From the sequence record OP557969.1: DNA of 64,000 bases; one strand, written 5' to 3'. The notes under the pieces were generated by a model that saw only the letters and a list, made by a program, of their open reading frames with translations, was not told the origin of the DNA and did not search any database. Source of the DNA: Escherichia phage ph0011. Position numbers and translations under genes: made by a program. Shown here piece after piece: positions 1,096 through 1,572 of this stretch. The first letter of the stretch is position 1, and each line of letters begins with the position of its first letter.

Positions 1096-1572
1096 ATGAT
1101 TCATGAACACAGAGGTAATCTGTTTGAATTATTCAGTACTGTAACAGATGATAATTCAGCATTACATATAATTGCTCATGGTTGTAACGCACAAGGTAAA
1201 ATGGGTTCAGGTTTTGCAAAAGAACTAAGAAATCGCTATCCAATGGCATATGATGATTATAAAGCATATGAAAAGGAAATGGGATTTCTAAGAACTGGGC
1301 AAATTTCATATTCTTTGGTAAGCAATGATTTGATTATTGCAAATTGTATTACGCAACAGTACTATGGCAATGATGGTAAAAAATATGTAAGTTATGATGC
1401 AGTTGACGATGTTTTTAAACAACTCAATTACTTATGTAATGTTGAACGAAGTATTCATGTGCACTTTCCGAAAATTGGAGCCGATTTGGGTGGTGGTAAC
1501 TGGAACGTTATCAAAGAAATCATTGATCATCGTTTGGTTAATGCAGAAAAACATTTATATATTCTAAAATAA
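1096..1572 (+). CDS. macro-domain protein (ADP-ribose binding / processing)
   Basis: 158 aa; GGAGA RBS; glycine-rich loop HGCNAQGKMGSGFA and overall pattern typical of macro (Appr-1-p processing) domains. Confidence 0.7.
   Translation: MIHEHRGNLFELFSTVTDDNSALHIIAHGCNAQGKMGSGFAKELRNRYPMAYDDYKAYEKEMGFLRTGQISYSLVSNDLIIANCITQQYYGNDGKKYVSYDAVDDVFKQLNYLCNVERSIHVHFPKIGADLGGGNWNVIKEIIDHRLVNAEKHLYILK

Follow-up and report, generated by a model that had tools for sequence, protein, structure and literature searches.

A Gln-type macrodomain protein of an Asteriusvirus-type jumbo coliphage and its possible role against DarT2-type toxins

Described relatives of the phage protein

Reversal of thymidine-linked ADP-ribosylation (T-ADPr) has been put forward as the unifying function of the TARG1/DarG class of macrodomains (PMC9411070). 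SCO6735 of Streptomyces coelicolor, in which Gln85 and Asn27 act in place of a lysine, cleaves thymidine-linked ADP-ribose from DNA and rescues cells from DarT; its N27S variant is nearly inactive and Q85A is inactive, and it has a longer loop, comparable to that described below, whose lysines matter for DNA (PMC9411070). Among phages, knockout of tk.4, encoding AdfM, makes T4 sensitive to DarTG2, a genetic result presented without biochemistry (HIDEN-SEQ preprint 10.1101/2025.11.20.689424), and T4 without adfA and adfN remains DarTG2-resistant (PMC11825919). The chimallivirus AdfM, phiKZ gp104, is a DarG-type macro protein supporting growth on DarTG2 hosts (PMC13309987). A different activity is known for Adpp of Vibrio phage Gary, a Poa1p-like member of the same family as T4 AdfM that dephosphorylates ADPR-1P in vitro: NARP1-AP needs Adpp against aRES, mutations in Adpp abolish the anti-aRES activity (Fig. 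3B), and an H24A construct figures among the primers (742/743, Table S4) of that study (10.64898/2026.01.28.702374).

We analysed a 64,000-nucleotide stretch (the window) of Escherichia phage ph0011 (OP557969.1), an Asteriusvirus-type jumbo coliphage, in which a macrodomain gene lies at 1096..1572. The encoded protein shares with T4 Tk.4 its assignment to phrog_335, a single domain of ~155 aa, the HGCN...TQ pattern and a Ser at the position of SCO6735 Lys34; both phages have an E. coli host and a genome without NARP1, and the two proteins are mutual unique matches, Tk.4 matching only the macro gene within the genome of the relative 121Q and the window. They are, however, 30% identical (pairwise BLASTP E 5e-12), the T4 loop after the Gln is shorter, and the T4 gene sits in the tk/vs/regB early region rather than among Nudix, glutaredoxin and neck genes. 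The best solved-structure relatives are SCO6735 and Bacteroides BT1257 (PDB 5e3b and 2fg1), which have the same Asn/Gln active site without Lys and an extended Lys-bearing loop, and which form the most frequent sister group in the family tree; they differ in being cellular and basic (pI about 9, against 6.4 here), in identity (29% for SCO6735 and 31% for BT1257, the best PDB match), and, for SCO6735, in Val25 and Lys34, which correspond to Gly29 and Ser38. Gary Adpp likewise belongs to the Gln-type phage macro family, its H24 corresponding to His28, but is 25% identical, and the window gene is not beside Adps/Namat and belongs to a lineage without NARP1.

Other systems depart from the window protein at the catalytic position. 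Yeast Poa1p, one of the top structural matches, has Ser and not Gln at the key position. The macrodomain of the DarG2 antitoxin is of the same class and has the conserved Asn (DarG N22), but its catalytic Lys80 (in 'PTK' of Taq DarG) is replaced by Gln87; in addition, the window protein is a single domain without the C-terminal DarT-binding domain, and no darT is adjacent, its gene having small hypothetical ORFs, glutaredoxin and Nudix as neighbours. DarG profiles match the macro part only (NCBIfam DarG 4.7e-8, 32.7 bits versus a cut-off of 250; PADLOC DarG 2.4e-10), and whereas phiKZ gp104 matches Mtb DarG at 9e-25, it matches the window protein at only E 3e-6 over 91 residues. Human TARG1/OARD1 has the same fold and class (TM 0.75/0.84) but 19% identity, with Lys84 and Asp125 replaced by Gln87 and Gly132.

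The gene, its fold and its active site

The coordinates of the gene and of its neighbouring features are collected in Table 1. The gene is real, conserved and under strong purifying selection: its five orthologues share 60-92% identity, and dN/dS is 0.07-0.17. The GGAG ribosome-binding site is kept in 4/5 phages compared, Salmonella phage 7t3 having CGAG, and the UE-S1 record annotates the equivalent site. The macro gene lies directly 3' of a terminator-like hairpin (RNA fold -13.6 kcal/mol, z -3.05) whose stems are kept and whose loops are variable in 121Q, EC.P1, UE-S1 and Salmonella phage 7t3. A sigma-70 promoter scan returned counts equal to the shuffled expectation, and thus nothing usable for expression timing. 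No macro paralogue was found in the window or in the adjacent locus of 121Q, and tblastn with the macro protein finds a single site in each of the EC.P1 and 7t3 genomes. The protein is an ordinary, already-annotated member of a known family: an identical protein has been deposited under the name 'macro domain-containing protein [Escherichia phage ph0011]', a large protein database yielded 183 homologues, and 1806/50,697 phage records contain a homologue.

Table 1. Features of the macrodomain locus of the ph0011 window (positions within the 64,000 nucleotides)
Feature	Position	Strand	Basis and remarks
Nudix hydrolase gene, 3' part (cut by window start)	1..266	+	121Q gene 540, Pfam NUDIX 1.2e-12
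Glutaredoxin	268..516	+	Pfam Glutaredoxin 1.6e-9
Stem-loop (10 bp stem) and T-run, terminator-like	1055..1084	+	Terminator scan; between upstream small ORF and macro gene
Shine-Dalgarno GGAG	1086..1089	+	Read from sequence; ATG 6 nt downstream
Macrodomain CDS	1096..1572	+	ATG..TAA ORF, 158 aa plus stop; phrog_335, PDB homologues, model, dN/dS
His28-Gly29-Cys30-Asn31 codons	1177..1188	+	Alignments, key-column table
Thr86-Gln87 codons	1351..1356	+	Gln87 at position of DarG Lys80, TARG1 Lys84, SCO6735 Gln85
Extended 'mobile' loop after Gln87, QYYGNDGKKYVSY, with Lys95 and Lys96	1357..1395	+	Alignment
Diphosphate-binding Gly-rich loop P125-K-I-G-A-D-L-G-G-G-N-W136	1468..1503	+	Alignments

That this is a macro-domain protein, as the initial annotation had proposed, was borne out by phrog_335, PDB homologues, a structural model and Foldseek, and the macro fold is confirmed, on profiles and a predicted structure, although the Pfam model suggested for checking it, PF01661, gives a borderline 18.5 bits where the gathering threshold is 22 (E 0.0019; match over profile positions 2-116 of 118). 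We did not read this sub-threshold score as evidence against the macro fold, since it is found by other profiles and by the structure; many relatives of 40-69% identity have a precomputed PF01661 match. The match to phrog_335 reaches 1.4e-45, and a sequence search of the PDB retrieved BT1257 (8.8e-17) and SCO6735 (8.6e-11). A family profile compared with the PDB gave 1.3e-26 for BT1257, 4.4e-20 for SCO6735, 7.7e-15 for Poa1p, 5.3e-13 for DarG and 1.8e-10 for TARG1, and only about 2e-3 for alphavirus macro domains. The AlphaFold2 model (pLDDT 95.6, pTM 0.91) predicts a three-layer alpha/beta/alpha fold with a six-stranded sheet, and the alignment has the conserved Gly-rich ADP-ribose-binding loops, GxG (G37-S-G39) and G128...G132-G134. 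The top 50 Foldseek matches are almost entirely macrodomains (2fg1 TM 0.82, 5e3b 0.76/0.81, 5m3e 0.72, 4j5s 0.75/0.84), with Poa1p third.

Both the profile comparison with the PDB and the similar Foldseek ranking, in which MacroD-type and viral X-domain structures stand below TARG1-class matches, place the nearest relatives in the TARG1/DarG/Poa1p/SCO6735 class. By alignment, the protein belongs to the TARG1/DarG/Poa1p (ALC1-like) class and, within it, to a Gln-type subclass in which Gln87 takes the place of the catalytic lysine and Asn31 is retained. His28 corresponds to Poa1p H23 and Adpp H24 and is conserved in every Gln-type member, AdfM and SCO6735 included; Asn31 corresponds to SCO6735 N27 and DarG N22; and the Gln87 column aligns with SCO6735 Q85, the 'YTQ' of T4 Tk.4 and the 'PTK' of DarG. 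H28, N31, Q87, P125 and G128 are invariant in a 63-sequence family alignment, and Q87 and N31 also across ten phage clades. TARG1 Asp125 aligns to Gly132, so that with Gln87 at the Lys84 column the TARG1 Lys/Asp dyad is absent. The MacroD-type motif Nx(6)GG[VLI]D carries a catalytic Asp. The window protein reads N31-AQGKMG-S38-G39-F40-A41, with no Asp at that position, and, its closest relatives being of TARG1 class instead, a MacroD-type enzyme was rejected; the catalytic Asn/Asp/His positions that had been proposed for inspection are specific to MacroD and inapplicable to a protein with Asn31 and Gln87. From its residues the protein is predicted to be an active hydrolase made up of one macrodomain of the Gln type (the SCO6735/BT1257/phage Tk.4 family).

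Family tree and genomic neighbourhood

Assigning the protein by phylogeny to AdfM, Adpp or SCO6735 was tried and rejected because the placement of its clade is weak: in a neighbor-joining tree with 150 bootstraps it groups with SCO6735/BT1257 in 48% (the most frequent group) and with RYC/Barba in 15%. Active-site columns do not discriminate either, H28, N31, Q87 and the Gly loops being identical across AdfM, Adpp and SCO6735. Net charge and pI are no guide to DNA binding, since the DNA-acting AdfM proteins of T4 (pI 5.9) and phiKZ (5.1) are acidic too. In BLAST against the window protein, Barba9A scored 87 bits, RYC 80.5, 1.063.O 77.8, T4 Tk.4 47 and Gary Adpp 32, and by this score a number of the closest phage relatives outside the jumbo phages lie in or beside the NARP1-associated group, with which the window protein shares D130 and, in the case of the RYC and Barba proteins, the loop form QxYYGYDGKxY. 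The Barba9A macro gene has no annotated NARP1 genes alongside; its sisters Barba19A/31A appear in the published list of NARP1-associated proteins (10.64898/2026.01.28.702374). AdfM and NARP1-associated members are intermixed in the tree. Judged from the sequences, the proteins named AdfM (anti-DarTG2) and Adpp (anti-aRES via NARP1) form one family that neither motifs nor phylogeny split, and whether the substrate is T-ADPr or ADPR-1''P cannot be told from sequence, tree or motifs.

The gene had been described as part of an early-gene-like block next to a glutaredoxin. The glutaredoxin is real and nearby, but two small ORFs separate it from the macro gene, and we found no support for an early-gene character: the gene follows a hairpin and is part of a conserved module, flanked by translation/tRNA-repair genes on one side and neck and tail-sheath genes on the other, and the arrays of tiny early-type ORFs of 121Q are found elsewhere, at about 54-200 kb. 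This jumbo-phage module comprises 2H-SAK, HPF, a CCA-adding enzyme, Nudix, glutaredoxin, macro and PTH2 genes, the 2H-SAK match of 121Q gene 531 being borderline (26 bits versus 27). The linkage of Nudix and macro genes is conserved in distant relatives, and the Nudix enzyme could consume ADP-ribose released by the macro enzyme; compared with the PDB, it gave generic Nudix-box matches only and no specific substrate assignment. Reading the 121Q annotation for KptA, NADAR or ART genes gave no leads, as most entries between 1 and 250 kb are labelled 'hypothetical protein'.

Adps and Namat were sought by tblastn with Pakpunavirus queries in ~99% of the relative 121Q and in the 64-kb window, where the best E values were 0.44 and 0.53, and neither is present among the neighbours of the macro gene in the window or in five relatives. 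On 121Q and the window, the lineage is one without NARP1. The published table of NARP1-associated macro proteins (Table S1) holds no Escherichia, Klebsiella or Salmonella phage (10.64898/2026.01.28.702374).

Candidate activities and their implications

Because the phage lineage is without NARP1, we tentatively favor an AdfM-like, anti-DarT2 role in this coliphage, a possible reading whose substrate and phenotype we infer. The ADP-ribose moiety would be bound in the canonical cleft with its diphosphate held by the Gly-rich loops, Asn31 would position Gln87 against the distal ribose, and the bond at C1'' of that ribose would be hydrolysed to give free ADP-ribose. In this way the ADP-ribose put by host DarT2-type toxins on thymidines of single-stranded phage DNA would be removed, which would restore replication and transcription and defeat the DarTG2 defence; the phage Nudix, three genes upstream, might go on to break down the freed ADP-ribose. 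The genome is AT-rich (34.9% GC), and therefore thymidine targets would be plentiful. Phylogenetic bracketing points the same way, T-ADPr reversal being found in the outgroups DarG and TARG1 and in the ingroup members SCO6735 and T4 Tk.4, and the reversal of host ADP-ribosylation-based defence, one of two roles suggested in the initial annotation, appears the best supported by sequence and by analogy to T4 AdfM and SCO6735. Counting against the AdfM-like role are the presence of Adpp, a proven ADPR-1''P phosphatase, in the same family, the nearest non-jumbo relatives in or near the NARP1 group with their common D130 and loop, the 48% bootstrap of the tree placement, and the conserved neighbours, which belong to RNA repair and translation (2H-SAK, CCA-adding enzyme, Nudix, PTH2) and not to DNA metabolism or anti-defence. 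The Lys34 of SCO6735 that is important for DNA is, moreover, Ser38 here, as it is a Ser in T4 Tk.4.

A serious rival, unforeseen in the initial annotation, is an Adpp/Poa1p-like phosphatase that would convert small-molecule ADPR-1''P to ADP-ribose, to be split by the nearby Nudix, in a pathway tied to the neighbouring 2H, CCA-adding and Nudix genes. The ADPR-1''P could come from NAD-dependent RNA-end repair, in which a Sir2- or KptA-type 2'-phosphotransferase would yield Appr>p and a 2H phosphoesterase Appr1p, or from host RES-domain NADases. The in vitro activity of Gary Adpp, the rank and profile score of Poa1p and the high BLAST scores of the NARP1-associated RYC, 1.063.O and Barba proteins, with the loop motif and D130 that they have in common with the window protein, argue for such an enzyme, as does the conserved jumbo-phage module, although synteny among related jumbo phages may merely reflect common descent. 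In an independent island, a 49%-identical homologue is accompanied by NAMPT, NMNAT-Nudix, cREC, HAD_SAK_2, Metallophos, YAcAr, PNKP and RlaP, and 121Q has genes for a Sir2 (Pfam 4.6e-20), together with a Nudt16-like Nudix, and for Rnl1 and PNKP, which fits a pathway predicted by comparative genomics (PMC9503650, PMC7824862). The 2'-phosphotransferase activity of Sir2 is, however, itself a predicted reaction. In addition, T4-type Rnl1/PNKP repair leaves no 2'-phosphate. Gary Adpp is the phage member most distant from the window protein, and the one advantage that Adpp has been shown to give, supplying NARP1 in its action against aRES, is inapplicable to a lineage without Adps/Namat. We regard the phosphatase as somewhat unlikely here. 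Another possibility is that the Gln-type phage macrodomains of phrog_335 are generalist C1''-ADP-ribosyl hydrolases with both AdfM and Adpp activities, the jumbo copy serving against DarTG2 and, with the linked 2H and Nudix enzymes, in the clearance of ADP-ribose by-products; such bifunctionality is compatible with the data because AdfM and NARP1-associated members are intermixed and every active-site residue is common to both, but we consider it unlikely.

Three further activities carry less weight. Removal of ADP-ribose from protein or RNA, whether to reverse host ART toxins (Glu/Asp-linked protein, uracil in RNA) or to erase or deacetylate products of the phage Sir2 (O-acetyl-ADP-ribose), would have precedents in SCO6735, which also acts on protein Glu-ADPr (PMC9411070) and on U-ADPr on RNA, and in TARG1/OARD1, an O-acetyl-ADPr deacetylase by its PDB names. 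It seems improbable nevertheless: protein or RNA is not a known substrate of any phage member of the Gln-type family, the surroundings of the macro gene yielded no recognisable ART gene, and the 121Q Sir2 gene lies unlinked, about 39 kb from the macro gene. The other role initially suggested is the breakdown of immune signals derived from ADP-ribose, for instance Thoeris gcADPR or His-ADPR. Low-molecular-weight ADPr signals have been proposed as targets of phage Macro domains (comparative genomics, PMC9503650, PMC7824862), and one relative lies near cpYpsA and Gad2 genes; yet our literature search found no experimental macrodomain enzyme inactivating Thoeris signals, the known counter-measures being sponges (Tad1, Tad2, Sequestin, RyR Tad) or RyR-domain enzymes, and both experimentally tested family members act on other substrates, which makes this role highly improbable. 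A non-catalytic ADP-ribose reader or sponge is least probable of all: some macrodomains bind ADPr only, but the residues for catalysis in SCO6735 (N27, Q85) and Adpp/Poa1p (H24/H23) are all invariant here.

For the family to which the window protein belongs, two anti-defence roles have recently been published from other phages, and in databases this one family goes by the labels 'phosphatase', 'macro domain protein' and 'hypothetical protein'. The classification is corrected here to a TARG1/DarG-class, Gln-type protein, not a MacroD-type one, that the Pfam Macro model misses. Since AdfM and Adpp are inseparable by sequence, a comparison of their cross-activities is worthwhile; were the bifunctional reading true, AdfM and Adpp, named independently in 2025-26, would be one bifunctional family. 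If the AdfM-like role is the true one, it would help to account for the ability of the Asteriusvirus jumbo coliphages, themselves phage-therapy candidates, to cope with E. coli carrying DarTG2.

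Fold, class and active site of the macro protein

The macro fold that the initial annotation had proposed for the window protein is confirmed, although the profile named as its check (Pfam Macro, PF01661) is borderline, scoring 18.5 bits where the gathering cut-off is 22. Confirmation comes from a match to the PHROG family phrog_335 (1.4e-45), from sequence matches to the PDB structures of Bacteroides BT1257 (2fg1, 8.8e-17) and Streptomyces coelicolor SCO6735 (5e3b, 8.6e-11), from a 63-sequence family profile that finds these two in the PDB (1.3e-26 and 4.4e-20) and then Poa1p, DarG and TARG1, and from an AlphaFold2 model (mean pLDDT 95.6, pTM 0.91) whose top Foldseek matches are the same PDB structures, at TM 0.72-0.84. 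The Pfam model under-scores the window protein, which is probably why several deposited relatives of this bona fide macrodomain are named 'hypothetical protein'.

Residue-level alignments, for which the TARG1 reference sequence was checked against PDB entries, place the protein in the TARG1/DarG/Poa1p/SCO6735 ('ALC1-like') class and outside the MacroD type, to which the proposed check of catalytic Asn/Asp/His positions is suited. Asn31 occupies the column of DarG N22 and SCO6735 N27, Gln87 stands where DarG K80 and TARG1 K84 provide the catalytic lysine, and Gly132 falls in the column of TARG1 Asp125. H28, N31, Q87, P125 and G128 are invariant in 63 relatives, and the Asn/Gln pair recurs in members of ten different phage groups. 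Judged from these alignments, the active-site arrangement is that of SCO6735, an enzyme that cannot do without Gln85 and Asn27 and for which a mechanism through a water molecule has been put forward (PMC9411070). The chimallivirus AdfM (anti-DarT factor, macrodomain), phiKZ gp104, resembles the window protein weakly and is a true DarG-type protein (Mtb DarG match 9e-25), with the lysine of 'PTK' in contrast to Gln87. With high confidence, the window protein is an intact and probably active macrodomain hydrolase of the TARG1 class and Gln type, which would release ADP-ribose from a C1''-linked substrate.

The gene and its surroundings

The ORF is exactly as initially described. Its sequence places the source among the jumbo coliphages of Asteriusvirus type (121Q/PBECO4 group): over the first 6 kb, identity is 92% with Escherichia phage UE-S1 and, in the shared part, about 89% with 121Q. 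A public record with an identical protein reads 'macro domain-containing protein [Escherichia phage ph0011]', and labels among relatives vary between macro domain protein, Appr-1-p processing protein, phosphatase and hypothetical protein. The dN/dS values of 0.07-0.17 against four orthologues, including that of the 60%-identical Salmonella phage 7t3, indicate strong purifying selection.

The initial annotation is partly right: the macrodomain holds, but an 'early-gene-like block' around the gene is unsupported. The gene follows a terminator-like hairpin and precedes neck and tail genes, and the long tiny-ORF arrays typical of early regions lie elsewhere in 121Q, away from it. The macro protein is outside the set annotated as virion structural in 121Q. 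The hairpin stem is kept and the loop varies in five phages (the window, 121Q, EC.P1, UE-S1 and the distant 7t3), and no promoter-like site was found in the 17 bases between stem and macro ATG. The hairpin's function may lie in termination or in mRNA stabilisation, with the macro gene set apart as a unit.

Features of the window and of related loci
Feature	Position	Strand	Details
Terminator-like stem-loop	1055-1078 + T-run, to 1084	+	10-bp stem; fold -13.6 kcal/mol, z -3.05
Ribosome-binding site	six bases 5' of macro ATG	+	GGAG, read from sequence
Macro ORF	1096..1572	+	ATG 1096, TAA 1570-1572; 158 codons
Small conserved ORF	1582..1899		phrog_527
Small conserved ORF	1912..2289		phrog_14786
Small conserved ORF	2273..2500
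DUF7487 ORF	3369-5363		664 aa; tandem 'NxxRYG'-type repeats; Pfam DUF7487 2.7e-39
DUF7487 ORF, distant metagenomic relative	L025:8323-10179		same site
Translation/tRNA-maintenance module, 121Q (also in the related loci L022, L025, L027, L028)	L001:1191-7573		upstream of neck/tail genes; conserved order across the phages 2H-SAK, lysozyme, HPF (HPF/RaiA), CCA-adding enzyme, Nudix, glutaredoxin, (YqeY), macro, (PTH2), neck gp13, dNMP kinase, tail sheath
121Q genes 476-477	L020:20175-21475		Sir2 (Pfam 4.6e-20), then directly Nudt16-like Nudix (1.3e-18)
Island of L023 (JGI 3300044604, Ga0452186_000553)			NMNAT-Nudix, NAMPT, cREC, HAD_SAK_2, metallophosphatase, macro, YAcAr, PNKP, RlaP

No recognisable domain was found in the three small ORFs between the macro and neck genes, an interval filled in some relatives by a PTH2 peptidyl-tRNA hydrolase. 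The DUF7487 ORF also occurs at the same site in UE-S1 and TH47. 121Q, PBECO4 and most other relatives lack it, and their alignment to the window is interrupted at about 3345; the ORF resembles a mobile insertion of homing type, lodged between the neck and dNMP kinase genes.

Possible AdfM-like and Adpp-like roles

SCO6735 strips thymidine-linked ADP-ribose from DNA in vitro and shields cells from DarT (PMC9411070); its further substrates are U-ADPr RNA and protein Glu-ADPr, whereas 2'-OH RNA-ADPr is not cleaved. Members of phrog_335 have been named twice, independently and for different functions, in 2025-26 preprints. The T4 tk.4 product, a member with 30% identity to the window protein, was the single hit of a transposon screen on DarTG2, and its clean knockout sensitises T4; the gene product has been renamed AdfM (10.1101/2025.11.20.689424); this accords with the earlier finding that T4 without adfA and adfN is still DarTG2-resistant (PMC11825919). 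In a January 2026 preprint (10.64898/2026.01.28.702374), a Poa1p-like Macro gene, Adpp, occurs in 15% of phage operons of NARP1 (the Adps and Namat gene pair), and Adpp of Vibrio phage Gary converts ADPR-1P to ADPR in vitro and enables NAD+ rebuilding by NARP1 once the RES-domain defence aRES has struck. The macro sequences in its Table S1 belong to the same Gln-type family as the window protein and include the aligned Pakpunavirus protein and the Vibrio RYC and Rheinheimera Barba proteins, the latter two among the best BLAST relatives of the window protein.

Sequence cannot separate thymidine-ADP-ribose removal from ADPR-1''-phosphate phosphatase activity here. BLAST bits against the window protein are 87 for Barba9A, 80.5 for RYC, 77 for BT1257, 59 for SCO6735, 47 for T4 Tk.4 and 32 for Gary Adpp. 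In a neighbour-joining tree (150 bootstraps) AdfM and Adpp proteins intermix: the window and 7t3 proteins group with SCO6735/BT1257/BillNye in 48% of replicates and with RYC/Barba in 15%, and 67% of replicates join Tk.4 to a NARP1-associated protein of an Acinetobacter phage. All catalytic columns are the same in AdfM, Adpp and SCO6735, and net charge does not separate the roles. A single bifunctional enzyme family embracing both AdfM and Adpp is conceivable but rather unlikely.

Only genomic context discriminates between the two roles, and it speaks for each of them in part. The main rival to an AdfM-like role, processing of ADPR-1''P or another small molecule tied to the adjoining RNA-repair and Nudix genes, is somewhat doubtful. 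In its favour, the macro gene belongs to a module that is kept among Rak2/Asteriusvirus-like jumbo phages even where macro identity falls to 46%, and shares it with 2H-SAK (a borderline 2H match in 121Q), CCA-adding enzyme and Nudix genes. A 2H phosphoesterase, a macro domain and a Nudix as a set would be reminiscent of the route that takes tRNA-splicing by-products from Appr>p through Appr1p and ADPr to AMP; this pathway, however, is unproven in phages, and synteny common to related jumbo phages is a weak sign of functional coupling. A 49%-identical homologue sits in the dense, unrelated NAD/ADPr and RNA-repair island of L023, and 121Q carries Rnl1, PNKP and a calcineurin-like phosphoesterase within about 20 kb of its Sir2. 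The 121Q Sir2/Nudix set matches predicted 'sirtuin in RNA-repair context' systems (PMC9503650), and both the island and the 121Q Sir2, Nudt16-like Nudix, Rnl1 and PNKP agree with comparative-genomics predictions (PMC9503650, PMC7824862). Against this, a search for Adps and Namat homologues that covered the window and about 99% of the 121Q genome found none (best E 0.44), and therefore the single benefit so far shown for Adpp, which is to feed NARP1, is without a partner in the ph0011 lineage. The Adpp preprint's list of NARP1-associated macro proteins includes no Escherichia, Klebsiella or Salmonella phage, and no NARP1 genes were found in the vicinity of tk.4 in T4.

De-ADP-ribosylation of protein or RNA is improbable, degradation of an immune signal highly so, and a non-catalytic reader function more remote still. 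An AdfM-like role, in which the window protein would reverse DarT2 thymidine ADP-ribosylation of phage DNA, is tentatively favoured at somewhat under even chances, because thymidine-ADP-ribose removal brackets the protein phylogenetically, because a coliphage family member shows the phenotype, and because the NARP1 partner required for the Adpp alternative is absent. The window protein is a further member of a known family, already annotated in public records.
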